Assembly (NCBI RefSeq): GCF_013167455.1
Contig: NZ_CP038328.1
Reading direction: 5' to 3' (one strand)
DNA from: Escherichia coli O157:H7
Lineage (GTDB): Bacteria > Pseudomonadota > Gammaproteobacteria > Enterobacterales > Enterobacteriaceae
DNA: 64,000 bases
In this document: positions 3,370-59,592 of the stretch, one piece after another
How positions within the stretch are numbered: the stretch's first letter is position 1
Layout: every line of letters begins with the position of its first letter
Position numbers and translations under genes: made by a program
Notes under the pieces: generated by a model
What the model saw: the letters and a program-made list of their open reading frames with translations, nothing else
What the model was told of the DNA's origin: nothing
Database searches by the model: none

Positions 3370-4101
3370 ATGGCTGAATTACTGTTAGGCGTCAACATTG
3401 ACCATATCGCTACGCTGCGCAACGCGCGCGGTACCGCTTACCCGGATCCGGTGCAGGCCGCGTTTATTGCCGAGCAGGCGGGGGCGGACGGCATTACCGT
3501 GCATTTACGTGAAGATCGCCGCCACATTACTGACCGCGATGTGCGCATCCTGCGTCAGACGCTGGATACCCGCATGAATCTGGAGATGGCGGTGACCGAA
3601 GAGATGCTGGCGATCGCGGTTGAGACGAAGCCGCATTTTTGCTGCCTGGTACCAGAAAAGCGTCAGGAAGTAACAACCGAAGGCGGCCTGGACGTTGCAG
3701 GGCAGCGTGACAAAATGCGCGATGCCTGCAAACGTCTGGCGGATGCCGGGATTCAGGTTTCTCTGTTTATCGACGCCGATGAAGAGCAGATCAAAGCTGC
3801 GGCAGAGGTTGGCGCACCGTTTATCGAGATCCACACCGGTTGCTATGCTGATGCCAAAACTGACGCCGAACAGGCGCAAGAGCTGGCGCGTATCGCCAAA
3901 GCCGCGACCTTTGCCGCTAGTCTCGGTTTGAAAGTTAACGCCGGACACGGTCTGACCTATCACAACGTAAAAGCCATTGCCGCCATCCCTGAGATGCACG
4001 AACTGAATATCGGTCATGCCATTATTGGTCGTGCAGTGATGACCGGACTGAAAGATGCGGTGGCAGAAATGAAGCGCCTGATGCTGGAAGCGCGTGGCTA
4101 A
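3370..4101 (+). CDS. pdxJ: Pyridoxine 5'-phosphate synthase
   Basis: 243-aa product from the internal ATG ([21 protein letters not shown]); the longest ORF starts at 3355. Confidence 0.93.
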
Positions 4102-4481
4102 TGGCAATATTAGGTTTAGGCACGGATATCGTAGAGATCGCTCGCATAGAAGCAGTGATCGCCCGATCCGGTGAGCGCCTGGCACGCCGCGTATTAAGCG
4201 ATAACGAATGGGAAATTTGGAAAACGCACCACCAGCCGGTGCGTTTTCTGGCGAAACGCTTTGCCGTAAAAGAAGCCGCAGCAAAAGCGTTTGGCACCGG
4301 GATCCGCAATGGTCTGGCGTTTAATCAGTTTGAAGTATTTAACGATGAGCTTGGTAAGCCACGGCTGCGACTGTGGGGCGAGGCATTAAAACTGGCGGAA
4401 AAGCTGGGCGTTGCAAATATGCATGTGACGCTGGCCGATGAGCGCCACTATGCTTGTGCCACGGTAATTATTGAAAGTTAA
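4101..4481 (+). CDS. acpS: Holo-[acyl-carrier-protein] synthase
   Basis: 126-aa ORF whose start overlaps the pdxJ stop by 1 nt; sequence recognised as AcpS. Confidence 0.95.
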
Positions 4482-7197: not shown

Positions 7198-9299
<2,102 letters not shown>

Positions 9300-9464
9300 T
9301 TAGTTAATTCTCTGTGTCGTGCGCGTCCCAGCTTGAAAAAATGTAATAATAGTGAAAGGTTTACTCATAAATGAGCGGCATTTTGCGTAAACCTGCGCCA
9401 GATGGCAACTTATTACAGCCATTGGCGGCACGCGTTGCTAATTCACGATGGTGATTTTATTTCC

Positions 9465-9480
9465 ACGCAAACGGTTTCGT
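9465..9480 (+). promoter_or_regulatory. PurR operator (ACGCAAACGGTTTCGT) in the purL leader
   Basis: 16-bp near-palindrome matching the PurR box consensus ACGCAAACGTTTTCTT, about 75 nt upstream of the purL start. Confidence 0.6.
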
Positions 9481-9555
9481 CAGCGCATCAGATTCTTTAT
9501 AATGACGCCCGTTTCCCCCCTTGGGTACACCGAAAGCTTAGAAGACGAGAGACTT

Positions 9556-12500
9556 ATGATGGAAATTCTGCGTGGTTCGCCTGCACTGTCGGCATTCCGA
9601 ATCAACAAACTGCTGGCACGTTTTCAGGCTGCCAGGCTCCCGGTTCACAATATTTACGCCGAGTATGTCCATTTTGCTGACCTCAATGCGCCGTTAAACG
9701 ATGATGAGCACGCACAACTTGAACGCCTGCTGAAATATGGCCCGGCACTCGCCAGCCACGCCCCGCAAGGCAAACTCCTGCTGGTGACCCCGCGTCCTGG
9801 CACCATCTCTCCCTGGTCTTCGAAAGCGACCGATATTGCTCATAACTGCGGGCTACAACAGGTAAACCGCCTTGAGCGCGGCGTTGCTTACTATATAGAA
9901 GCCGGTACGCTGACCAATGAACAATGGCAGCAGGTTACCGCTGAACTGCACGACCGCATGATGGAAACGGTCTTTTTTGCTTTAGATGATGCAGAGCAGT
10001 TGTTTGCCCACCATCAACCGACTCCGGTTACCAGCGTTGATTTGCTGGGGCAGGGCCGTCAGGCGCTGATCGACGCTAACCTGCGTCTTGGCCTGGCTCT
10101 GGCGGAAGATGAAATTGACTATCTGCAGGATGCTTTCACAAAGCTTGGTCGTAACCCGAACGACATCGAGCTGTATATGTTCGCTCAGGCGAACTCTGAG
10201 CACTGCCGCCACAAAATTTTTAATGCCGACTGGATTATCGACGGTGAACAGCAGCCGAAATCGCTGTTCAAGATGATCAAAAATACTTTCGAAACCACGC
10301 CAGATCACGTTCTCTCTGCTTATAAAGATAACGCCGCCGTAATGGAAGGTTCTGAAGTGGGCCGCTACTTTGCTGACCACGAAACGGGCCGCTACGATTT
10401 CCATCAGGAACCGGCGCATATTCTGATGAAAGTCGAAACTCACAACCACCCGACGGCGATTTCTCCGTGGCCGGGCGCGGCGACCGGTTCCGGCGGTGAA
10501 ATCCGCGATGAAGGTGCCACCGGGCGCGGCGCGAAGCCGAAAGCGGGTTTGGTTGGTTTCTCCGTTTCCAACCTGCGAATTCCTGGCTTCGAACAGCCGT
10601 GGGAAGAAGATTTCGGTAAGCCTGAGCGCATTGTCACCGCGCTGGACATCATGACCGAAGGCCCGCTGGGCGGCGCGGCGTTTAACAACGAATTTGGTCG
10701 TCCGGCACTGAATGGCTACTTCCGTACTTATGAAGAAAAAGTGAACAGCCACAACGGCGAAGAGCTGCGCGGTTATCACAAACCGATCATGCTGGCGGGC
10801 GGGATCGGCAACATTCGCGCCGATCACGTACAAAAAGGCGAGATCAACGTCGGTGCGAAACTGGTCGTTCTCGGCGGCCCGGCAATGAACATCGGTCTTG
10901 GCGGCGGAGCGGCGTCTTCCATGGCGTCAGGTCAGTCTGATGCCGACCTCGACTTTGCTTCCGTACAGCGCGACAACCCGGAGATGGAGCGTCGCTGCCA
11001 GGAAGTGATCGACCGTTGCTGGCAGCTTGGTGATGCCAACCCAATCCTGTTTATCCACGACGTCGGCGCTGGCGGTCTTTCTAACGCGATGCCGGAACTG
11101 GTGAGCGACGGCGGGCGCGGCGGTAAATTTGAACTGCGCGATATTCTAAGCGACGAACCGGGCATGAGCCCGCTGGAAATCTGGTGTAACGAATCCCAGG
11201 AACGCTACGTGCTGGCGGTTGCTGCCGATCAATTACCGCTGTTTGACGAACTGTGTAAGCGTGAGCGCGCACCCTACGCGGTGATTGGTGAAGCGACCGA
11301 AGAACTGCATCTTTCTCTGCACGATCGTCATTTTGATAATCAGCCGATCGATCTGCCGCTGGACGTCCTGCTTGGTAAAACGCCGAAGATGACCCGCGAT
11401 GTACAAACGCTGAAAGCGAAGGGCGATGCGCTGGTCCGTGAAGGGATCACCATTGCAGACGCGGTGAAACGCGTACTGCATCTGCCGACCGTGGCGGAGA
11501 AAACTTTCCTGGTGACCATCGGTGACCGCAGCGTAACCGGCATGGTGGCGCGCGATCAGATGGTGGGGCCGTGGCAGGTGCCGGTCGCTAACTGCGCGGT
11601 CACTACCGCCAGCCTCGACAGCTACTACGGTGAAGCGATGGCGATTGGCGAGCGTGCGCCGGTTGCGCTGCTGGATTTCGCCGCCTCTGCCCGTCTGGCG
11701 GTCGGTGAAGCGTTAACCAATATTGCCGCAACACAGATTGGCGATATCAAACGCATTAAACTTTCCGCCAACTGGATGGCGGCGGCAGGCCACCCTGGTG
11801 AAGATGCGGGCCTGTATGAAGCCGTTAAAGCCGTGGGCGAAGAGCTTTGTCCGGCGCTGGGCCTGACGATCCCGGTGGGTAAAGACTCTATGTCGATGAA
11901 AACCCGCTGGCAGGAAGGTAACGAAGAGCGCGAAATGACGTCGCCGCTGTCGCTGGTGATTTCTGCATTTGCCCGCGTGGAAGATGTACGTCACACCATC
12001 ACGCCGCAGCTTTCTACCGAAGATAACGCACTGCTGCTGATTGATTTGGGCAAAGGCAATAACGCGCTGGGCGCAACGGCGCTGGCGCAGGTTTATCGTC
12101 AGCTTGGCGACAAACCGGCAGATGTACGCGATGTCGCGCAACTGAAAGGCTTCTATGACGCGATTCAGGCGCTGGTTGCACAGCGTAAGTTGCTGGCGTA
12201 TCACGACCGCTCTGATGGCGGTCTGCTGGTAACGCTGGCGGAAATGGCCTTTGCTGGTCATTGCGGCATTGACGCGGATATCGCCACTCTGGGTGACGAT
12301 CGCCTGGCGGCGTTGTTTAACGAAGAACTGGGTGCGGTCATTCAGGTTCGTGCCGCTGACCGTGAAGCGGTCGAGTCCGTACTGGCACAGCATGGGCTTG
12401 CTGATTGCGTCCATTATGTTGGGCAGGCGGTTTCCGGTGACCGTTTTGTGATTACCGCCAACGGGCAGACTGTATTCAGCGAAAGCCGCACTACGTTGCG

Positions 12501-13443
12501 TGTCTGGTGGGCAGAAACTACCTGGCAGATGCAGCGCCTGCGTGACAACCCGGAGTGTGCCGATCAGGAGCATCAGGCGAAATCAAACGACGCCGATCCG
12601 GGCCTGAATGTGAAACTGTCGTTTGATATCAACGAAGATGTGGCAGCACCGTATATTGCCACTGGCGCACGTCCGAAAGTTGCTGTGCTGCGTGAGCAGG
12701 GCGTGAACTCGCATGTTGAAATGGCGGCAGCTTTCCACCGTGCAGGCTTCGATGCTATCGACGTGCATATGAGCGACCTGCTGGCTGGACGCACGGGCCT
12801 GGAGGATTTCCACGCCCTGGTCGCGTGCGGTGGTTTCTCCTACGGTGATGTGCTGGGTGCCGGTGAAGGTTGGGCGAAGTCTATCCTGTTCAATGACCGT
12901 GTACGCGATGAGTTTGCAACCTTCTTCCACCGTCCGCAAACGCTGGCGCTGGGGGTATGTAACGGTTGCCAGATGATGTCTAATCTGCGTGAACTGATCC
13001 CAGGTAGTGAGTTGTGGCCACGTTTTGTGCGCAATACCTCCGATCGCTTTGAAGCGCGTTTCAGCTTGGTTGAAGTGACCCAAAGCCCGTCGCTGCTGTT
13101 GCAGGGGATGGTGGGCTCGCAAATGCCGATTGCTGTCTCTCATGGTGAAGGGCGCGTGGAAGTGCGTGATGCGGCGCATCTGGCGGCACTGGAAAGCAAA
13201 GGGCTGGTGGCACTGCGCTATGTCGATAACTTCGGCAAAGTCACTGAAACCTACCCGGCTAACCCGAACGGTTCTCCGAACGGTATTACGGCGGTCACGA
13301 CTGAAAGCGGTCGAGTCACCATTATGATGCCGCACCCGGAACGTGTTTTCCGTACTGTCAGCAACTCCTGGCATCCTGAAAACTGGGGCGAGGATGGCCC
13401 ATGGATGCGCATTTTCCGCAATGCACGTAAGCAGTTGGGGTAA
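9556..13443 (+). CDS. purL: Phosphoribosylformylglycinamidine synthase
   Basis: 1295-aa product from the internal ATG ([14 protein letters not shown]); the longest ORF begins at 9448. Confidence 0.96.
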
Positions 13444-16324: not shown

Positions 16325-17648
16325 ACCTGCGCATTTATTATTGGTCGATGACGATCCGGGATTGCTGAAACTGCTTGGCCTGCGCCTGACCAGCGAAGGC
16401 TACAGCGTGGTCACGGCGGAAAGTGGCGCTGAAGGATTACGGGTACTGAATCGCGAAAAAGTAGATTTAGTCATCAGCGACCTGCGGATGGATGAAATGG
16501 ACGGTATGCAGCTGTTTGCTGAAATCCAGAAAGTGCAGCCGGGAATGCCGGTAATTATTCTTACCGCGCATGGTTCTATTCCCGATGCCGTTGCTGCAAC
16601 ACAGCAGGGCGTTTTTAGTTTCCTCACCAAGCCTGTTGATAAAGACGCGCTATATCAGGCAATTGATGATGCGCTGGAACAATCCGCGCCAGCCACCGAC
16701 GAACGCTGGCGCGAGGCGATTGTCACCCGCAGCCCGCTGATGCTGCGTTTGCTGGAACAGGCGCGGCTGGTGGCGCAATCAGACGTCAGCGTTTTGATTA
16801 ATGGCCAGAGCGGCACCGGGAAAGAGATTTTCGCCCAGGCTATCCACAACGCCAGCCCGCGCAATAGCAAACCATTTATTGCTATTAACTGTGGTGCATT
16901 GCCTGAGCAATTGCTGGAGTCGGAGCTGTTTGGTCATGCGCGTGGCGCGTTTACTGGCGCTGTCAGCAATCGCGAAGGTTTATTCCAGGCGGCGGAAGGC
17001 GGAACGCTATTTCTCGATGAGATTGGCGATATGCCTGCGCCGTTGCAGGTCAAACTGTTGCGCGTGTTGCAGGAGCGTAAAGTGCGCCCGCTGGGCAGTA
17101 ACCGCGATATTGATATCAATGTGCGGATTATTTCTGCCACTCACCGTGATCTGCCAAAAGCGATGGCGCGCGGGGAATTCCGCGAAGATCTCTATTACCG
17201 CCTCAACGTTGTCAGCCTGAAAATTCCGGCACTGGCGGAGCGCACAGAAGACATTCCGCTACTGGCAAATCACCTGTTGCGCCAGGCGGCAGAGCGACAT
17301 AAACCGTTTGTCCGCGCGTTTTCCACCGATGCGATGAAACGCCTGATGACCGCGAGCTGGCCGGGTAATGTGCGCCAGTTGGTCAACGTGATTGAACAGT
17401 GCGTGGCGCTGACCTCATCTCCGGTGATTAGCGATGCATTAGTAGAGCAGGCGCTGGAGGGTGAAAATACGGCGCTGCCAACCTTTGTTGAGGCACGTAA
17501 TCAGTTTGAACTCAACTATTTGCGTAAGCTGCTGCAAATTACCAAAGGCAACGTCACCCACGCGGCGAGAATGGCGGGGCGCAACCGGACAGAATTTTAT
17601 AAACTGCTTTCCCGACACGAGCTGGATGCAAACGATTTCAAGGAATGA
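16314..17648 (+). CDS. glrR: Sigma-54-dependent response regulator GlrR
   Basis: 444-aa product from the internal ATG ([14 protein letters not shown]); receiver domain, AAA+ GAFTGA motif and C-terminal HTH. Confidence 0.92.
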
Positions 17649-17672
17649 ATTGGCGTTATGTGTTACGTTTAG

Positions 17673-18047
<375 letters not shown>

Positions 18048-18059
18048 ACCGCGTCAAGG

Positions 18060-18085
18060 GTTGCCGGATGTTTCCATCCGGCAAC
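18060..18085. terminator. Hairpin between convergent glnB and hmp (GTTGCCGGATG / CATCCGGCAAC)
   Basis: 11-bp perfect stem; weak U-tract. Confidence 0.5.
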
Positions 18086-18091
18086 ATCAAA

Positions 18092-19282
18092 TCACAGCAC
18101 CTTATGCGGGCCAAAGCATTCGTAATGAATGTTTTCCTGCTTCACGCCCAGATCCACTAACTGTTTCGCGGCAAACTGCATGAAGCCAACCGGGCCGCAG
18201 AGATAGAACTGCATTGTCGGATCGCTGAACGCACCTTCCAGTTTGCTCAAATCCATCAGACCTTCGCTATCAAACTGACCTTTAGCGCGATCGGCTTCGC
18301 TCGGCTGACGATACCAGGTGTGCGCGGTAAAGCGCGGCAGTGACTGCCCCAGTTCCTTAACTTCATCGGCAAAGGCGTGAACATCGCCATTTTCTGCCGC
18401 ATGGAACCAGTTCACTTGTGCTGTGTGGCCTGCTTTTGCCAGCGTGTCGAGCATTGCCAGCATTGGCGTTTGACCAACACCGGCAGAGATTAACGTCACT
18501 GGTGTGTCATCTGCGACAGCCATAAAGAAATCACCTGCCGGAGCGACCAGTTTCACGACATCGCCAACATTGGCGTGATTGTGCAACCAGTTGGATACCT
18601 GCCCACCCTCTTCGCGTTTCACCGCAATACGATAGCCTTTGCCATCCGGTTTGCGAGTCAAAGAGTACTGACGAATTTCCTGATGCGGGAAACCTTCCGG
18701 CTTCAGCCAGACGCCGAGATATTGCCCCGGACGGTATTCTGCCACTGCGCCACCGTCGACCGGCTCCAGTTCGAAGCTGGTGATAAGCGCGCTGCGAGGT
18801 GTTTTAGCCACAATGCGGAAATCGCGAGTACCTTCCCAGCCACCGGCTTTGCTGGCGTTTTCGTTATAGATTTCCGCCTCGCGATTGATAAATACATTAG
18901 CCAGTACACCATAGGCTTTACCCCACGCGTCCAGCACTTCCTGCCCCGGGCTGAACATTTCGTCCAGCGTTGCCAACAGGTGTTCACCGACGATGTTGTA
19001 CTGTTCCGGTTTGATCTGGAAACTGGTGTGCTTCTGCGCGATTTTTTCTACCGCTGGCAGCAGCGCAGGCAGGTTTTCAATATTACTGGCGTAGGCGGCA
19101 ATAGCGTTAAACAGGGCTTCACGTTGATCGCCATTACGCTGGTTACTCATGTTAAAAATTTCTTTGAGTTCTGGGTTATGAGTAAACATACGGTCGTAGA
19201 AATGGGCGGTTAACTTTGGCCCCGTTTCCACCAGTAAAGGGATGGTGGCTTTTACTGTAGCGATGGTTTGAGCGTCAAGCAT
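18092..19282 (-). CDS. hmp: Flavohaemoglobin (nitric oxide dioxygenase)
   Basis: 396-aa product from the internal ATG ([13 protein letters not shown]); globin and FAD/NAD reductase domains. Confidence 0.93.
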
Positions 19283-19300
19283 ATGGTCTTCCTTTTTTTG

Positions 19301-19331
19301 CATCTTAATTGATGTATCTCAAATGCATCTT
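19301..19331 (-). promoter_or_regulatory. NsrR operator (with an FNR-like half-site) over the hmp promoter
   Basis: Minus-strand AAGATGCATTTGAGATACATCAATTAAGATG, 19-49 nt upstream of the hmp start; matches the NsrR inverted-repeat motif. Confidence 0.55.
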
Positions 19332-19478
19332 ATAAAAAATAGCCCTGCAATGTAAATGGTTCTTTGGTGTTTTTCAGAAAGAATGTGATGAAGTGAAAAA
19401 TTTGCATCACAAACCTGAAAAGAAATCCGTTTCCGGTTGCAAGCTCTTTATTCTCCAAAGCCTTGCGTAGCCTGAAGG

Positions 19479-19494
19479 TAATCGTTTGCGTAAA
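19479..19494 (+). promoter_or_regulatory. PurR box-like site upstream of glyA (TAATCGTTTGCGTAAA)
   Basis: Matches the reverse-complement core of the PurR consensus; glyA is a known PurR regulon member. Confidence 0.45.
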
Positions 19495-19609
19495 TTCCTT
19501 TGTCAAGACCTGTTATCGCACAATGATTCGGTTATACTGTTCGCCGTTGTCCAACAGGACCGCCTATAAAGGCCAAAAATTTTATTGTTAGCTGAGTCAG
19601 GAGATGCGG

Positions 19610-20863
19610 ATGTTAAAGCGTGAAATGAACATTGCCGATTATGATGCCGAACTGTGGCAGGCTATGGAGCAGGAAAAAGTACGTCAGGAAGAGCACATCG
19701 AACTGATCGCCTCCGAAAACTACACCAGCCCGCGCGTAATGCAGGCGCAGGGTTCTCAGCTGACCAACAAATATGCTGAAGGTTATCCGGGCAAACGCTA
19801 CTACGGTGGTTGCGAGTATGTTGATATCGTTGAACAACTGGCGATCGATCGTGCGAAAGAACTGTTCGGCGCTGACTACGCTAACGTCCAGCCGCACTCC
19901 GGCTCCCAGGCTAACTTTGCGGTCTACACCGCGCTGCTGGAACCAGGTGATACCGTTCTGGGTATGAACCTGGCGCATGGCGGTCACCTGACTCACGGTT
20001 CTCCGGTTAACTTCTCCGGTAAACTGTACAACATTGTTCCTTACGGTATTGATGCTACCGGTCATATCGACTACGCCGATCTGGAAAAACAAGCCAAAGA
20101 ACACAAACCGAAAATGATTATCGGTGGCTTCTCTGCATATTCCGGCGTGGTGGACTGGGCGAAAATGCGTGAAATCGCTGACAGCATCGGCGCTTACCTG
20201 TTCGTTGATATGGCGCACGTTGCGGGCCTGGTTGCTGCTGGCGTCTACCCGAACCCGGTTCCTCATGCTCACGTTGTTACTACCACCACTCACAAAACCC
20301 TGGCGGGTCCGCGCGGCGGTCTGATCCTGGCGAAAGGTGGTAGCGAAGAGCTGTACAAAAAACTGAACTCTGCCGTTTTCCCTGGTGGTCAGGGCGGTCC
20401 GTTGATGCACGTAATCGCCGGTAAAGCGGTTGCTCTGAAAGAAGCGATGGAGCCTGAGTTCAAAACTTACCAGCAGCAGGTCGCTAAAAACGCTAAAGCG
20501 ATGGTAGAAGTGTTCCTGGAACGCGGCTACAAAGTGGTTTCCGGCGGTACTGATAACCATCTGTTCCTGGTTGATCTGGTCGATAAAAACCTGACCGGTA
20601 AAGAAGCAGACGCCGCTCTGGGCCGTGCTAACATCACCGTCAACAAAAACAGCGTACCGAACGATCCGAAGAGCCCGTTTGTGACCTCCGGTATTCGCGT
20701 GGGTACTCCGGCAATTACGCGTCGCGGCTTCAAAGAAGTAGAAGCGAAAGAACTGGCTGGCTGGATGTGTGACGTGCTGGACAGCATCAATGATGAAGCC
20801 GTTATCGAGCGCATCAAAGGTAAAGTTCTCGACATCTGCGCACGTTACCCGGTTTACGCATAA
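19610..20863 (+). CDS. glyA: Serine hydroxymethyltransferase
   Basis: 417-aa product; AGGAG Shine-Dalgarno; sequence recognised as GlyA. Confidence 0.96.
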
Positions 20864-20883
20864 GCGAAACGGTTAATCTGTTG

Positions 20884-20912
20884 AAAAAGGCTTCCTTCGG
20901 GAAGCCTTTCTA
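20884..20912. terminator. Bidirectional terminator between glyA and yphH (AAAGGCTTCC / GGAAGCCTTT)
   Basis: 10-bp perfect stem with a TTCG loop. Confidence 0.65.
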
Positions 20913-20925
20913 CGTTATCGCGCCA

Positions 20926-22119
20926 TCAAATCTGTCGTAACTGCGTCTCAACATACAAATAGCCAATTCCCAGCACCTGTTGTGCGCGGCTTAATTGCCC
21001 GAAGCCAATTTGCGTCGCTTTCACGCTCGGTCCTTCGTCGCGGTCGAACGGGTTAAATCCTGTCTGGCGAATAATAGTATTAAGCCAGTGCTCACCAAAG
21101 GCACAACTGCGACCGTACAACCAAATCTGATTAATATTGAGGATGTTGAGGAAGTTATACAGACTCAAACCAATGGCATTGGCAGAGCGATCAACCCAGC
21201 TGGTGATCCACGGTTCTCCACTTTGCCAGGCAGCGATTAACTGCGCTGTAGTCAGTTTTTCAGGATCAAGCTGAGTATTAACCGGTTGTGATTTTAGCCA
21301 TACCCGCGCCTGTTTTTTTAATGCACTTAACGAGGCGACGGTTTCCAGGCAGCCGTAACGTCCACAGTCGCAGACGACGCCATCCGGATTAACGATGGTG
21401 TGACCAATCTGTCCGCTACCATACAAACTGCCGCGATAAATTTGCTCGTTAATCACGAACGACGAGCCAATGCCGTAATCAACGTTGATCACGCAGAAAT
21501 CCCGTTCCTGCGAATTATTTTGCCATTTTTCCGCCAGCGCCAGCATCACGCAGTCATTATCGACCATCACCCGAATGCCCAGCTTCTCTTCCAGCAGATA
21601 CTTCACCTCAACCGGCGTTGTCCACGGCGCTTGCGGCATGGTTTGCGACACTCCAGTCACTGGATCAACCTGACCGTGGATTGCCAGCGCCAGATTGATG
21701 GTGCGGTCCGGCCACAATTTACGGTGGCGATGCCAGCATTTTTCGATTTCGGACAGCAGCGCCTGCGGCGTCGGTGCATCAATCTGTAAATACTCAAATT
21801 CACCTTTCGGACTTAAACAAGCATTAGCAACCTGACACTCAATACTGGTGGGCGTCACGTTCAGACACAGCGTCCAGTCACCTTCCGGCGCAATCAGCCA
21901 TGTACCGCTACTATGCCCGCGCGTCTGGCTTTCATCGTCGATATTCACCACCCGTTTTTCGCTTTCCAGTTCCTGCAAAATATTACTGACTGCCGGAATC
22001 GAAATTTGCGCCAGCCGGGCCAGCGTTGATTTATTGGCGCGCTTTTGCCGGTACAGCAGTTCCAGAATCACGCATTTGTTATGGTGGCGAATCTGTTGAT
22101 TGTTAATGCAGGCTCTCAT
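20926..22119 (-). CDS. yphH: ROK (NagC/XylR)-family transcriptional regulator
   Basis: About 397 aa; N-terminal HTH, ROK glycine motifs and a CxCGxxGCxE zinc motif; start may instead be 22125. Confidence 0.85.
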   Translation of the reverse strand: MRACINNQQIRHHNKCVILELLYRQKRANKSTLARLAQISIPAVSNILQELESEKRVVNIDDESQTRGHSSGTWLIAPEGDWTLCLNVTPTSIECQVANACLSPKGEFEYLQIDAPTPQALLSEIEKCWHRHRKLWPDRTINLALAIHGQVDPVTGVSQTMPQAPWTTPVEVKYLLEEKLGIRVMVDNDCVMLALAEKWQNNSQERDFCVINVDYGIGSSFVINEQIYRGSLYGSGQIGHTIVNPDGVVCDCGRYGCLETVASLSALKKQARVWLKSQPVNTQLDPEKLTTAQLIAAWQSGEPWITSWVDRSANAIGLSLYNFLNILNINQIWLYGRSCAFGEHWLNTIIRQTGFNPFDRDEGPSVKATQIGFGQLSRAQQVLGIGYLYVETQLRQI

Positions 22120-22143
22120 CTTCACTAAACCTTGTTTAGTTAA

Positions 22144-25100
22144 TTGCGTGATTATTCCGCGAAAACATTGCCAGATTGTTCAATACACTGCCACAAATCT
22201 TTTAATTCAGTATGTCTTGTTAATATTGAGGGCACCATGACTCCAGTAAAAGTGTGGCAAGAGCGCGTTGAGATCCCGACCTATGAAACCGGGCCGCAGG
22301 ATATACATCCCATGTTCCTGGAAAATCGCGTTTATCAGGGATCGTCCGGCGCGGTTTATCCCTACGGCGTGACCGATACGCTGAGCGAGCAGAAAACCCT
22401 GAAATCCTGGCAGGCGGTGTGGCTGGAAAACGACTACATCAAAGTGATGATCCTGCCGGAATTGGGCGGTCGGGTGCATCGCGCATGGGATAAAGTGAAA
22501 CAGCGCGATTTTGTCTATCACAATGAAGTCATTAAACCTGCGCTGGTGGGGCTGCTGGGACCGTGGATCTCCGGCGGGATTGAGTTTAACTGGCCGCAAC
22601 ACCATCGCCCGACCACCTTTATGCCCGTTGATTTCACCCTCGAAGCCCATGAAGACGGCGCACAGACGGTGTGGGTAGGCGAAACGGAGCCGATGCATGG
22701 TTTACAGGTGATGACAGGTTTCACCCTGCGCCCTGACCGGGCGGCGCTGGAAATCGCCAGCCGCGTCTATAACGGCAACGCCACGCCGCGTCATTTCTTG
22801 TGGTGGGCCAACCCGGCAGTGAAAGGGGGTGAAGGGCATCAGAGCGTCTTTCCGCCGGATGTAACGGCGGTGTTTGATCACGGCAAACGGGCCGTCTCCG
22901 CTTTCCCTATCGCCACCGGCACTTACTACAAAGTGGACTACTCCGCTGGAGTGGACATTTCTCGCTATAAAAATGTGCCCGTTCCAACCTCATATATGGC
23001 TGAAAAATCACAGTACGATTTTGTTGGCGCGTGGTGTCACGATGAAGATGGCGGTTTGCTACACGTTGCCAACCACCATATTGCGCCAGGTAAAAAGCAG
23101 TGGAGCTGGGGACACAGTGAATTTGGCCAGGCGTGGGATAAGAGCCTAACTGATAATAACGGCCCGTATATCGAACTGATGACCGGTATTTTTGCCGATA
23201 ACCAGCCTGATTTTACCCGGCTTGATGCTTACGAAGAGAAGCGTTTTGAGCAGTTTTTCCTGCCTTACCATTCTCTGGGCATGGTGCAAAACGCCTCCCG
23301 CGATGCGGTAATCAAACTCCAGCGTAGTGAGCGGGGGATTGAGTGGGGGCTGTATGCCATCTCTCCGTTGAACGGATACCGCCTGGCGATCCGCGAAATC
23401 GGCAAATGCGACGCGTTGCTCGATGATGCCGTGGCCCTGACACCAGCGACCGCCATCCAGGGCGTGTTACACGGTATCAATCCTGAAAGACTGACCATTG
23501 AGCTCTCTGATGCCGACGGCAATATTGTACTGAGTTATCAGGAACATCAGCCGCAAGAGTTGCCGTTGCCGGACGTCGCCAAAGCGCCACTGTCAGCACA
23601 AGACATTACCAGTACAGATGAAGCCTGGTTTATCGGTCAGCATCTGGAGCAATATCATCACGCCAGCCGTTCACCGTTCGATTACTACCTGCGCGGCGTG
23701 GCGCTGGATCCGCTGGATTACCGCTGTAATCTGGCGCTGGCGATGCTGGAGTATAACCGCGCAGATTTCCCGCAAGCGGTGGCGTATGCCACTCAGGCTC
23801 TGAAACGCGCACATGCGCTGAACAAAAATCCGCAGTGCGGACAGGCGAGTTTGATTCGCGCCAGTGCTTACGAACGTCAGGGACAATATCAACAAGCCGA
23901 AGAGGATTTCTGGCGTGCGGTCTGGAGCGGCAACAGTAAAGCCGGAGGCTATTATGGTCTGGCACGACTGGCGGCGCGTAATGGTAACTTCGACGCGGGT
24001 CTGGATTTTTGCCAACAAAGTCTTCGCGCCTGCCCAATCAATCAGGAAGTGCTTTGCCTGCATAATCTGCTGCTGGTGTTAAGTGGTCGTCAGGACAACG
24101 CGCGTTTGCAGCGCGAGAAACTGCTGCGCGATTATCCGCTGAACGCCACTCTGTGGTGCCTGAACTGGTTCGATGGTCGTAGCGAATCATCTCTCGCGCA
24201 GTGGCGCGGTCTGTGTCAGGGACGCGACGTTAACGCCCTGATGACCGCCGGGCAACTGATTAACTGGGGAATGCCCACCCTCGCGGCAGAGATGCTGAAT
24301 GCACTGGACTGCCAGCGCACGCTGCCGCTTTACCTGCAAGCCAGCTTGCTGCCGAAAGCCGAACGTGGCGAACTGGTCGCAAAAGCCATTGATGTCTTCC
24401 CGCAGTTTGTCCGTTTCCCGAATACGCTGGAAGAAGTGGCGGCGCTGGAGAGTATTGAAGAGTGCTGGTTTGCTCGCCATTTACTGGCCTGCTTCTACTA
24501 CAACAAACGTAGCTACAACGAAGCCATTGCCTTATGGCAACGTTGCGTAGAGATGTCGCCGGAGTTTGCCGACGGCTGGCGCGGGTTAGCGATCCATGCG
24601 TGGAATAAGCAACACGATTATGAGCTGGCCGCGCGTTATCTTGATAATGCTTATCAGCTTGCGCCGCAGGATGCACGTCTGCTTTTCGAACGGGATTTGC
24701 TTGATAAGCTAAGTGGAACCACACCGGAGAAACGACTGGCGCGTCTGGAAAATAATCTGGAAATTGCGCTGAAACGCGACGACATGACCGCAGAACTGCT
24801 CAATTTGTGGCATCTCACGGGGCAGGCAGACAAAGCGGCGGACATTCTCGCCACGCGCAAATTCCACCCGTGGGAAGGCGGGGAAGGGAAGGTCACCAGT
24901 CAGTTTATCCTCAACCAGTTATTACGCGCCTGGCAGCATCTTGATGCCAGAGAGCCGCAGCAGGCCAGCGAACTGCTTCATGCCGCGCTGCATTATCCGG
25001 AGAATTTAAGCGAAGGCCGTTTACCGGGGCAAACTGATAACGACATCTGGTTCTGGCAGGCGATATGCGCCAAAGCCCAGGGCGATGAAACTGAAGCGAC

Positions 25101-57185: not shown

Positions 57186-59498
57186 ATGCCTCGCTTGTTA
57201 ACCAAACGCGGCTGCTGGATAACGCTGGCAGCTGCGCCATTTCTCCTTTTTCTTGCAGCGTGGGGAGCAGATAAACTCTGGCCTCTACCGCTGCATGAAG
57301 TCAATCCCGCACGAGTGGTCGTGGCGCAGGATGGTACGCCGCTCTGGCGCTTCGCCGATGCTGACGGCATCTGGCGTTATCCTGTAACAATCGAAGATGT
57401 TTCTCCACGTTACCTTGAAGCGCTGATCAATTATGAAGATCGCTGGTTCTGGAAGCATCCTGGGGTGAATCCATTCTCGGTGGCGCGCGCAGCATGGCAA
57501 GATCTCACTTCGGGACGGGTTATTTCCGGTGGCAGCACGCTCACTATGCAGGTTGCTCGTCTGCTTGATCCTCACCCCAAAACATTTGGCGGCAAAATTC
57601 GCCAGCTCTGGCGCGCGTTGCAACTGGAATGGCATCTGTCTAAGCGTGAAATTCTGACCTTGTATCTTAACCGCGCTCCGTTTGGCGGTACGTTGCAGGG
57701 GATCGGTGCGGCAAGTTGGGCTTATCTCGGAAAGTCGCCTGCGAATTTAAGCTATTCCGAGGCGGCAATGCTGGCGGTTTTGCCGCAAGCGCCCAGCCGT
57801 CTTCGCCCGGATCGTTGGCCGGAGCGTGCCGAAGTCGCGCGTAATAAAGTGCTCGAACGGATGGCCGTGCAAGGTGTGTGGTCCCGTGAGCAGGTAAAAG
57901 AGTCAAGGGAAGAACCCATCTGGCTGGCACCCCGACAAATGCCGCAACTGGCACCGCTGTTTTCGCGCATGATGCTCGGTAAAAGCAAAAGCGACAAAAT
58001 CGTTACTACGCTGGATGCCGGTCTTCAACGACGTCTGGAAGAACTGGCGCAAAACTGGAAAGGACGATTACCACCGCGCAGCTCACTGGCGATGATCGTG
58101 GTTGATCATACCGATATGCGTGTTCGCGGCTGGGTGGGTTCGGTTGATCTCAACGATGATTCACGCTTTGGTCATGTTGATATGGTCAATGCGATCCGAT
58201 CGCCAGGATCGGTGCTCAAACCGTTTGTTTACGGTCTGGCGCTGGATGAAGGATTGATCCACCCGGCATCACTGCTGCAAGACGTCCCCCGGCGTACCGG
58301 TGATTACCGACCTGGCAACTTTGACAGCGGTTTTCATGGCCCGATCAGCATGAGCGAGGCGCTGGTGCGCTCGCTGAATTTACCTGCTGTGCAGGTGCTG
58401 GAAGCCTATGGACCGAAACGGTTTGCGGCAAAGTTACGCAATGTTGGATTGCCGTTATATTTGCCCAACGGTGCTGCGCCGAATCTTTCGCTCATTCTCG
58501 GCGGCGCTGGTGCGAAACTGGAAGATATGGCGGCAGCGTATACCGCGTTTGCTCGCCACGGCAAGGCAGGCAAATTGCGCTTACAGCCTGACGATCCGCT
58601 GCTTGAACGGCCTTTAATGTCGTCGGGAGCGGCGTGGATCATTCGCCGGATTATGGCTGATGAAGCGCTACCCTTGCCGGATGGTGCCTTGCCGCGCGTC
58701 GCCCCACTGGCATGGAAAACGGGCACCAGCTATGGCTATCGTGACGCCTGGGCGATTGGGGTTAACGCTCGCTATGTCATTGGGATCTGGACTGGCAGAC
58801 CGGACGGCACGCCCGTTGTTGGTCAGTTTGGTTTTGCCAGCGCCGTACCATTGTTGAATCAGGTCAATAATATCTTACTGTCGCGCAGTGCTAATCTGCC
58901 GGAAGACCCGCGCCCGAACTCAGTCACTCGTGGCGTTATTTGCTGGCCGGGCGGACAGTCTTTGCCGGAAGGTGACGGTAACTGTCGCCGCCGCCTGGCA
59001 ACCTGGCTGCTGGACGGGAGTCAGCCGCCAACTCTATTACTGCCGGAGCAGGAAGGCATTAATGGCATTCGTTTCCCCATCTGGCTGGATGAAAATGGCA
59101 AACGTGTTGCCGCTGATTGCCCGCAAGCGCGACAAGAAATGATAAATGTCTGGCCGCTACCGCTGGAACCCTGGTTGCCCGCATCAGAACGTCGCGCTGT
59201 GCGCTTACCACCGGCCTCGACAATTTGCCCGCCATACGGTCACGATGCCCAGCTCCCGCTGCAGCTGACAGGCGTTCGCGATGGCGAGATTATTAAACGT
59301 TTACCGGGCGCAGCGGAAGCGACTTTGCCGTTGCAATCAAGTGGAGGGGCAGGTGAACGCTGGTGGTTTCTGAATGGCGAACCGTTAACTGAACGCGGGC
59401 GCAACGTGACCCTGCATTTGACGGATAAAGGTGATTATCAATTGCTGGTGATGGATGACGTAGGGCAAATCGCGTCAGTACATTTTTCATTTCAGTGA
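57186..59498 (+). CDS. pbpC: Penicillin-binding protein 1C
   Basis: 770 aa; ATG directly abuts the yfhM stop; glycosyltransferase and transpeptidase motifs. Confidence 0.95.
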   Translation: MPRLLTKRGCWITLAAAPFLLFLAAWGADKLWPLPLHEVNPARVVVAQDGTPLWRFADADGIWRYPVTIEDVSPRYLEALINYEDRWFWKHPGVNPFSVARAAWQDLTSGRVISGGSTLTMQVARLLDPHPKTFGGKIRQLWRALQLEWHLSKREILTLYLNRAPFGGTLQGIGAASWAYLGKSPANLSYSEAAMLAVLPQAPSRLRPDRWPERAEVARNKVLERMAVQGVWSREQVKESREEPIWLAPRQMPQLAPLFSRMMLGKSKSDKIVTTLDAGLQRRLEELAQNWKGRLPPRSSLAMIVVDHTDMRVRGWVGSVDLNDDSRFGHVDMVNAIRSPGSVLKPFVYGLALDEGLIHPASLLQDVPRRTGDYRPGNFDSGFHGPISMSEALVRSLNLPAVQVLEAYGPKRFAAKLRNVGLPLYLPNGAAPNLSLILGGAGAKLEDMAAAYTAFARHGKAGKLRLQPDDPLLERPLMSSGAAWIIRRIMADEALPLPDGALPRVAPLAWKTGTSYGYRDAWAIGVNARYVIGIWTGRPDGTPVVGQFGFASAVPLLNQVNNILLSRSANLPEDPRPNSVTRGVICWPGGQSLPEGDGNCRRRLATWLLDGSQPPTLLLPEQEGINGIRFPIWLDENGKRVAADCPQARQEMINVWPLPLEPWLPASERRAVRLPPASTICPPYGHDAQLPLQLTGVRDGEIIKRLPGAAEATLPLQSSGGAGERWWFLNGEPLTERGRNVTLHLTDKGDYQLLVMDDVGQIASVHFSFQ

Positions 59499-59592
59499 AA
59501 TATACAAAATATTTATTAATCTAATTATGGTATTTATATTTGGAATGCATTAATAATTTAATAATCTCACGTTTTTTTAAACGACTAATTAT

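Follow-up and report, generated by a model that had tools for sequence, protein, structure and literature searches.

The hmp–glyA control region of an Escherichia coli genome is in its reference state, with the published NsrR, FNR and PurR sites intact

Introduction

The hmp promoter is the main nitric oxide (NO)-responsive switch of enteric bacteria and is widely used as an NO biosensor (e.g. PMC6195910); its divergent neighbour, glyA, supplies one-carbon units. A site of the same sequence as the NsrR operator considered here lies under a ChIP-seq peak in the CFT073 NsrR study, which thus reports in vivo occupancy by NsrR on the identical sequence; its PatSer ln P is -18.22, where the threshold is -14.28 (PMC5320621 Table 4). 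The same study lists an 11-mer, AAGATGCAAAA, as a possible NsrR motif with a low PatSer score of 5.0 (PMC5320621 Table 2). In addition, HmpA synthesis is repressed by the sigma-S-dependent small RNA SdsN137 (reviewed in PMC8139620, PMC9262595).

The role of FNR at hmp has been approached through binding-site prediction, occupancy and expression. The sequence TTGAGATACATCAA is listed for glyA/hmp with a PatSer score of 14.39 and an ln P of -12.89, above the threshold of the authors' FNR matrix (PMC3688515 supplement file 6). No FNR ChIP-seq peak was found at the hmp site, which is one of 124 'silent' predicted sites; at the same time, hmp is FNR-repressed in E. coli expression data and derepressed in fnr mutants, and the authors deem direct control probable (PMC3688515). 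In Salmonella grown anaerobically, hmpA-lacZ synthesis rose 216-fold when fnr was deleted (PMC3212961).

Two MetR sites, with the consensus TGAAnnTnnTTCA, have been described in the hmp–glyA region (PMC5002191), and MetR together with homocysteine activates glyA and represses hmp (PMC5002191, PMC4239095). Comparative genomics likewise places both genes in the Enterobacterales MetR regulon (PMC4239095). At metE, a strong and a weak MetR site are centred at -63 and -41, 22 bp apart (PMC5002191). Finally, glyA carries a PurR ChIP-chip peak over the same motif as is found here, with a log2 ratio of 2.08 when adenine is supplied and 1.13 when it is not (PMC3159470 Table 1).

Here, we describe the region between hmp and glyA within a 64-kb stretch of E. 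coli DNA (hereafter the window, meaning the whole of the DNA that was analysed), for which an original prediction had proposed overlapping regulator sites. The sequence identities, positions, matrix scores and conservation are our own results, and the occupancy and regulatory effects are taken from the literature.

Results

The region is the exact non-coding gap of 327 bp (19283–19609) between the hmp ATG at 19282 (minus strand) and the glyA ATG at 19610 (plus strand). The hmp coding sequence (18092–19282, minus strand; K-12 b2552) encodes an NO-inducible flavohaemoglobin of 396 aa, which matched the NCBIfam equivalog model NF009805 at 629 bits (cut-off 432), and the glyA coding sequence (19610–20863, plus strand; K-12 b2551) encodes a serine hydroxymethyltransferase of 417 aa, which matched NF000586 at 677 bits (cut-off 335). 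Both genes named in the original prediction of a divergent hmp–glyA control region were thereby confirmed, and its coordinates were exact. The order of neighbouring genes (glrR, glnB, hmp, glyA, yphH, yphG) is the E. coli K-12 arrangement, and we consider it almost certain that this is the canonical divergent hmp–glyA regulatory region of E. coli.

The 327-bp spacer is 100% identical to that of K-12 MG1655, and it was found in 5425 of 5426 complete E. coli genomes, in a single copy each and at an identity of at least 99% in 5384. The genome is that of a strain other than K-12: identity to K-12 is only 97.7–98.9% over the flanking 8 kb, and the flanking genes diverge from it by 1–2%. Over 3757 aligned bases around the spacer there were 41 differences from K-12, distributed across the 3' end of glrR (8), glnB (8), hmp (6) and glyA (19), with none in the intergenic region. 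Given the third-codon-position divergence of hmp and glyA (2.7%), 8.8 differences would have been expected in the 327 bp; the observation of none (Poisson P = 1.5e-4) indicates that the spacer is under purifying selection. By our own arithmetic, the hmp rate alone leads to an expectation of about 3.3 spacer differences (P about 0.04). The region had been put forward as a useful place to check regulatory integrity in this strain, and on that count the spacer is intact: since it agrees with K-12 MG1655 base for base, nothing in it is aberrant.

Matches to regulator motifs in such a region might simply be chance similarities in AT-rich promoter DNA, in which case the region would not be unusually rich in regulator sites. 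As this explanation would predict, scanning the window with the FNR, MetR and PurR consensus sequences, with up to 3 mismatches allowed, gave counts near the shuffled expectation, and ordinary sequence holds about 0.5 NsrR half-site matches of 6 bits or more per 130 bp. Because the consensus scans ran so near to chance, leave-one-out matrices and conservation were used instead. The NsrR matrix was rebuilt from the 25 other distinct sites of PMC5320621 Table 4 with hmp excluded (training-site range 12.2–31.8 bits), and the PurR matrix was built from the 27 other motifs of PMC3159470 with glyA excluded.

With the first of these matrices, the 11-1-11 NsrR operator TTGATGTATCTCAAATGCATCTT (19309–19331), which is identical to the published hmp site, scored 18.6 bits. 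This was the top score of 128,000 positions (both strands of the 64-kb window), ahead of a runner-up at 13.3 bits, and it was attained by 0.25% of intergenic shuffles (P = 0.0025). As an inverted repeat the operator is weak, with 7 of 11 positions symmetric, and a repeat search of the region at seed 6 reported no inverted repeat, the NsrR dyad included; the dyad is too imperfect, and a search by symmetry alone therefore misses the operator. Its two halves are unequal: the half over the -10 hexamer (19321–19331) scored 15.75 bits and the half nearer the hmp ATG (19309–19319) 3.3 bits. The operator overlaps the predicted hmp -10 hexamer (TAAGAT, 19332–19327 when read on the minus strand). The placement of an NsrR-type inverted repeat over the hmp -10 region in the original prediction was thus borne out, by a strong matrix score in spite of weak symmetry.

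The PurR operator AGGTAATCGTTTGCGT (19476–19491) lies 119–134 nt upstream of the glyA start codon; its sequence is that of the published glyA motif, and it scored 21.0 bits. This was the second-highest PurR score in the window, level with that of the purL operator (9465–9480, 21.1 bits), which is itself in the training set, and it was attained by none of 2000 shuffles. The operator agrees with the palindromic form ACGNAAACGTTTGCNT at 12 of the 14 specified bases and has the central CG. What had been predicted as a merely box-like PurR sequence upstream of glyA is present there as described and, going by the ChIP-chip data of PMC3159470, is an experimentally bound operator. The matrix scanning that had been suggested as a check placed the NsrR site first and the PurR site second in the window for their respective matrices.

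To set these sites in a wider context, one genome per species was scanned with the conserved first 38 bases of glyA. This yielded 120 loci, 89 of which had a divergent hmp upstream of glyA, with spacers of 238–540 bp. The comparison set (n = 90) comprises these 89 Enterobacterales loci and the window; the species are related and the counts drawn from them are not independent. An NsrR site was found in 90 of 90 regions (16.4–32.0 bits, median 27.7), typically 16–44 nt from the hmp ATG and, in three regions, at 72–79 nt. A PurR box was also present in all 90 (12.3–24.0 bits), mostly 110–152 nt upstream of the glyA ATG and, in three regions, at 185–323 nt; its core, AATCGTTTGCGT, is nearly invariant.

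Conservation was expressed as the fraction of sequences that share the base of the window in a MAFFT alignment of the 90 regions. It was 1.00 for the hmp -35 hexamer, 0.96 for the hmp -10 hexamer, 0.94 for the strong NsrR half, 0.90 for the PurR box, 0.92 for the glyA -10 hexamer TATACT and 0.94 for the last 24 nt of the glyA leader, and 0.76 and 0.78 for the two MetR blocks, A and B, described below. The annotated sites were thus conserved at 0.76–1.00, against 0.50 for the 187 unassigned positions. The E. albertii spacer differs from that of the window at 35 positions, none of which falls in a core site; two differences within site boundaries lie in the N5 spacer of MetR site A and at the first flanking base of MetR site B.

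Taken together, these data make chance similarity a very remote explanation of the matches. Fewer than 3 per 100,000 positions of the window score as high with the full NsrR and PurR matrices, both sites recur at matching positions in every region compared, the sites are far better conserved than the DNA between them, and published ChIP data record their occupancy (PMC5320621, PMC3159470).

A second NsrR-type element, the single 11-mer AAGATGCAAAA listed in PMC5320621 Table 2, lies in the hmp leader (19296–19306, minus strand) and scored 7.8 bits with the half-site matrix. It forms part of a 9-nt direct repeat, TGCATCTTA, found at 19299–19307 and 19324–19332. Its conservation is 0.41 and it is restricted to Escherichia; half-site-like NsrR matches number 3–10 per 130 bp in the orthologous AT-rich regions. 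Its function is doubtful. The idea that it partly compensates for the weak NsrR palindrome is speculative, since half-site matches are common in the orthologous AT-rich regions and 19296–19306 is poorly conserved.

The half of the NsrR operator nearer the hmp ATG is also part of an FNR box, TTGATGTATCTCAA (19309–19322), which matches TTGAT-N4-ATCAA at 9 of 10 bases and is a published predicted site. The box consists of the weak NsrR half and three further bases. An FNR-like element had been predicted within the NsrR repeat, and one is indeed there; the prediction had spoken of a half-site only, whereas the element is a full 14-bp box. One-mismatch FNR boxes number six in the 64-kb window versus 2.2 expected by shuffling, a marginal excess given that 2 of 100 shuffles reach six.

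Across the 90 regions, an FNR match of at least 9 of 10 in the register of the NsrR operator was found in nine, the window included. The others are those of E. albertii, a second E. coli, another Escherichia species (10 of 10), four Citrobacter and Salmonella enterica subsp. diarizonae; matches in the remaining regions were 3–8 of 10. In Klebsiella, Enterobacter, Serratia, Yersinia, Pectobacterium and others, the NsrR palindrome is near-perfect and the FNR match at that position is 3–7 of 10. Over the 90 regions, the FNR match count was negatively correlated with the NsrR score of the same half-site (Spearman -0.75), although the relatedness of the species means that the P value cannot be taken as a true probability. 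The mean NsrR score of this half-site is about 14 bits, dropping to about 8 where the FNR box overlies it. In E. coli the half scores 3.3 bits, and the hmp operator as a whole ranks second from last among the 90 as an NsrR match. The two types of half-site are exemplified by TTGATGTATCT in E. coli and AAGTTGTATTT in Klebsiella and Enterobacter. A single base illustrates the trade: the C at 19318 costs 4.8 bits of NsrR score and is also the sole FNR mismatch, and the Escherichia species with the 10 of 10 match has an A at the equivalent position, giving a perfect FNR box.

These observations bear on two readings of the box. In the first, to which we give rather less than even confidence, the FNR box would be a recent overlay, confined to Escherichia, Citrobacter and Salmonella, on one half of an ancient Enterobacterales NsrR operator, acquired at a cost to NsrR recognition. 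Gain of the box appears to weaken the NsrR half-site, an evolutionary reading that is mildly new. In the second, which we regard as unlikely, the box would not be a working operator, having arisen incidentally from the AT-rich NsrR palindrome, with FNR acting on hmp indirectly, for example through nitrite/NO metabolism and NsrR. The missing FNR ChIP-seq peak (PMC3688515) would fit such a by-product, as would the frequency of one-mismatch boxes in the window, only about 2.7 times chance, and the lack of the box in most Enterobacterales that keep the NsrR site. Nevertheless, the site scores above the threshold set for the published FNR matrix, and the authors of that study placed hmp in the direct regulon (PMC3688515). 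Moreover, NsrR bound to the overlapping site could mask an FNR ChIP signal. In the Escherichia, Citrobacter and Salmonella clade, the base changes that give rise to the box reduce the score of the NsrR half, and drift alone is unlikely to yield matches of 9–10 of 10. Binding of FNR to the hmp site in vitro, as reportedly observed by Cruz-Ramos in 2002, also speaks against a by-product.

The position of the composite operator relative to transcription depends on probable promoter elements and on the FNR site itself. The hmp promoter is read as a -35 hexamer TTTACA (19351–19356, minus strand), found by promoter scan, with no base shared by fewer than 95% of the 90 sequences (the mean of 1.00 being rounded), and a -10 hexamer TAAGAT (19327–19332, minus strand; alternatively TATAAG, 19334–19329), a probable assignment from the promoter scan and conservation. 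These hexamers, together with an FNR site reportedly centred at +5.5 by Cruz-Ramos et al. in 2002, would put the hmp start near 19320 and the NsrR operator at about -11 to +12 relative to it. The transcription starts of both hmp and glyA, and thus all site positions relative to them, are inferred in this way. A probable hmp Shine-Dalgarno sequence, AGGAAG (19288–19293, minus strand), was read from the sequence 5 nt before the ATG.

On the other side of the region, TATACT (19533–19538, plus strand; TACACT in more distant genera) is the probable glyA -10 hexamer, as judged by its conservation, with the glyA start presumed at about 19545, and the conserved end of the glyA leader (19586–19609, plus strand) includes the Shine-Dalgarno sequence AGGAG (19599–19603), its value of 0.94 being drawn from 90 species. 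Two further conserved blocks, CAAAGCCTTG (19456–19465; 0.84, against 0.50 elsewhere) and TTGTCAAGACCTG (19500–19512; 0.82), appear mildly new and have no place in the best explanation of the region. The second contains a TTGACA-like hexamer that lies 27 bp from the conserved -10, which is not the spacing of a standard -35. This hexamer, TTGTCA (19500–19505), was considered as the glyA -35 and rejected: the -10 that would partner it, AATGAT, is not conserved, and the conserved TATACT is 27 bp away. An Rfam scan of 18900–20000 at E values up to 1 returned one meaningless miRNA match of 17 bits and no known RNA element, and folding of the two mRNA leaders gave z-scores of 0.3 and 1.0 against shuffles, with no stable or riboswitch-like structure.

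Between the two promoters lie two candidate MetR sites. Site A, proximal to hmp (GTGAAAAATTTGCAT, 19393–19407), matches ATGAA-N5-TTCAT at 8 of 10 bases, and site B, proximal to glyA (CTGAAAAGAAATCCG, 19415–19429), is a weaker match with a TGAA core that is about 90% conserved. Their TGAA cores begin at 19394 and 19416, 22 bp apart. MetR with homocysteine is said, from work by Membrillo-Hernandez in 1998, to activate glyA and repress hmp. The original prediction had named sites that each match published E. coli sequences; it gave no coordinates for them and left these two central MetR sites unplaced.

Within the intergenic region, TGAAAAATTTGCA (19394–19406), in site A, is the sole match to TGAA-N5-TTCA with at most one mismatch in the 8 bases. 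Site B (TGAA-N5-ATCC) matches 6 of 8, a quality that occurs in the window at the chance rate. At the quality of site A, the 8-base form occurs 27 times in the window versus 27.6 expected and the 15-bp form 32 times versus 29.8. Motif matching by itself cannot establish these as MetR sites, and their proposed placement draws on conservation together with secondary citations. Site A is kept as (A/G)TGAA-N5-(T/C)GCAT across several Enterobacterales families; in most genera it reads ATGAA-N5-TGCAT, which matches the 15-bp MetR motif at 9 of 10 bases, with a second TGAA exactly 22 bp on.

The central TGAA blocks (19393–19429) might instead be the target of a different factor, or be upstream elements of the promoters, with the published MetR sites elsewhere in the region. 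The poor dyad of site B and the lack of enrichment of MetR consensus matches in the window are in keeping with this, yet we think it improbable in view of the uniqueness of site A within the intergenic region, its 9 of 10 match to the 15-bp motif in most species, a strong/weak spacing of 22 bp that copies metE (PMC5002191) and the inclusion of both hmp and glyA in the Enterobacterales MetR regulon by comparative genomics (PMC4239095).

Discussion

The control region described here is already known and is in its reference state, with the published NsrR, FNR and PurR sites intact. A mechanism may be proposed for it by combining the positions above with the literature. A sigma-70 hmp promoter (-35 TTTACA, -10 TAAGAT, start near 19320) would be covered by the composite operator from about -11 to +12. 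When NO is absent, NsrR, an Rrf2-family repressor carrying a [4Fe-4S] cluster, would bind the 11-1-11 repeat and block RNA polymerase; NO would damage the cluster and release the repression of hmp. The operator half proximal to the hmp ATG would double as the FNR box, through which FNR, a member of the CRP/FNR family, could repress the same promoter under anoxia, and FNR would likewise be inactivated by NO. In the centre of the region, MetR, a LysR-type regulator, would occupy two sites 22 bp apart and, with homocysteine, activate glyA; depletion of homocysteine, for example by nitrosation, would favour hmp through binding at the hmp-proximal MetR site. Just upstream of the glyA promoter, PurR, a LacI-family regulator, when bound to hypoxanthine or guanine would exert a modest repression from its 16-bp operator.

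With the operators intact, control by NO, oxygen, purines and homocysteine should work in this strain as it does in K-12. If the FNR box is indeed an overlay on the NsrR operator, NsrR would have a looser hold on hmp in E. coli, and two NO-sensitive Fe-S repressors would compete for one site. Such competition could explain the absent FNR ChIP signal, and the Escherichia-specific half-site at 19296–19306 might partly compensate for the weaker NsrR palindrome. Current understanding of the region is unchanged by these results; they add a modest evolutionary footnote, namely that the NsrR site is universal, that the FNR overlay is restricted by lineage and that two conserved blocks have no factor assigned to them.

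In Klebsiella, Enterobacter, Serratia, Yersinia and Pectobacterium, as here, hmp and glyA are divergent, the NsrR operator and the PurR box are present, and so are the -35 hexamer of hmp and the -10 hexamer of glyA. The region differs from those of these genera in its NsrR palindrome, which in them is near-perfect (median 27.7 bits versus 18.6 here) and has no FNR box in register. The hmp–glyA tandem MetR sites of earlier work (Lorenz and Stauffer 1995, 1996; Membrillo-Hernandez et al. 1998) would correspond here to two dyads related to TGAA-N5-TTCA, placed by sequence. Candidate sites A and B form the same pair of a strong and a weak dyad 22 bp apart as the tandem sites of metE–metR, though they are unusually far from the probable glyA start, at about -120 to -150. 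The glyA PurR operator is that of E. coli as published (Steiert et al. 1990, 1992; PMC3159470), with the same AGGTAATCGTTTGCGT at the same distance from glyA and no difference. Finally, the composite NsrR/FNR operator is identical in sequence to that of K-12 hmp (Bodenmiller and Spiro 2006; Cruz-Ramos et al. 2002; Partridge et al. 2009; PMC5320621), lying in the same position over the -10 hexamer and the probable start and including the same FNR box, TTGAGATACATCAA.

PurR boxes across the window

Scanning with a PurR matrix rebuilt from published sites identified the purL operator, ACGAAACCGTTTGCGT, on the minus strand at 9465–9480 (21.1 bits), a box identical in sequence to the purL motif in Table 1 of PMC3159470. 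It lies just upstream of purL, the long reading frame of which spans 9448–13443. A PurR-like box, TTGAAATCGTTTGCAT, was also found on the minus strand at 17626–17641 (14.0 bits), within the 3' end of glrR and 68–83 nt upstream of the glnB ATG. He et al. reportedly described glnB as a PurR target in 1993. The gene was missed by a PurR ChIP-chip study (PMC3159470). Taken together, the purL operator, glnB and glyA therefore place three PurR-regulon promoters in the window. Shortly past a reading frame ending at 63483, a further PurR-like box on the minus strand, ACGAAAGCGTTGGCGC (63521–63536), scored 15.3 bits.

Conserved sequence beside the PurR box and in the glyA leader

On either side of the PurR box of glyA are the blocks CAAAGCCTTG (19456–19465) and TTGTCAAGACCTG (19500–19512), with a conservation of 0.82–0.84 across Enterobacterales. 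The glyA leader ends in a 24-nt segment, TGTTAGCTGAGTCAGGAGATGCGG (19586–19609), in which no base is kept in fewer than 80% of 90 species and 19 bases reach 95% or more. This conservation exceeds what a Shine-Dalgarno sequence alone would need. Searches of this segment for RNA structure and for Rfam matches found none, and the segment could be the target of a protein or a small RNA.

Further NsrR and FNR matches

The second and third best matches to the NsrR matrix in the window, at 59531–59553 (13.3 bits) and 9271–9293 (12.8 bits), scored barely above the weakest training site, and neither is among the published NsrR sites in the lists compared. Both are intergenic: the former lies between a reading frame that ends at 59498 and one that starts at 59662, the latter upstream of purL. 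Closer to hmp, an 11-mer resembling an NsrR half-site, AAGAACCATTT (19354–19364, minus strand, 8.0 bits), is conserved in Enterobacteriaceae and overlaps the hmp -35 hexamer; its conservation may simply be that of the promoter. Inside purL, TTGCTGCCGATCAA (11219–11232) is a predicted FNR site from the supplement of PMC3688515, where it corresponds to the 'silent' predicted site TTGATCGGCAGCAA described as 'Within purL'.

Comparison with other E. coli

Natural variants of the hmp promoter and leader were seen when E. coli loci L122 and L123 were compared. A record labelled UTI89 carries G>A at 19325 within the strong NsrR half, giving AAATACATCTT, a form that also occurs in Citrobacter, while the T-run of the hmp leader (19292–19299) has one T more in both this record and strain MCJCHV-1.

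The window comes from a non-K-12 E. coli. Against MG1655, the flanking genes within 17117–24982 are 97.7–98.9% identical, whereas the three intergenic regions of the aligned stretch (glrR-glnB, glnB-hmp and hmp-glyA) show 0 differences. The region 3' of glyA was compared between window positions 20864–20925 and 4058–4254 of the K-12 locus (L001). In K-12, a REP/BIME element of ~135 bp separates the glyA stop codon from the terminator hairpin; the window strain is without this element, such that 148 bp in K-12 correspond to 13 bp here (20874–20886), and the terminator hairpin itself, AAGGCTTCCTTCGGGAAGCCTTTCT, is retained.
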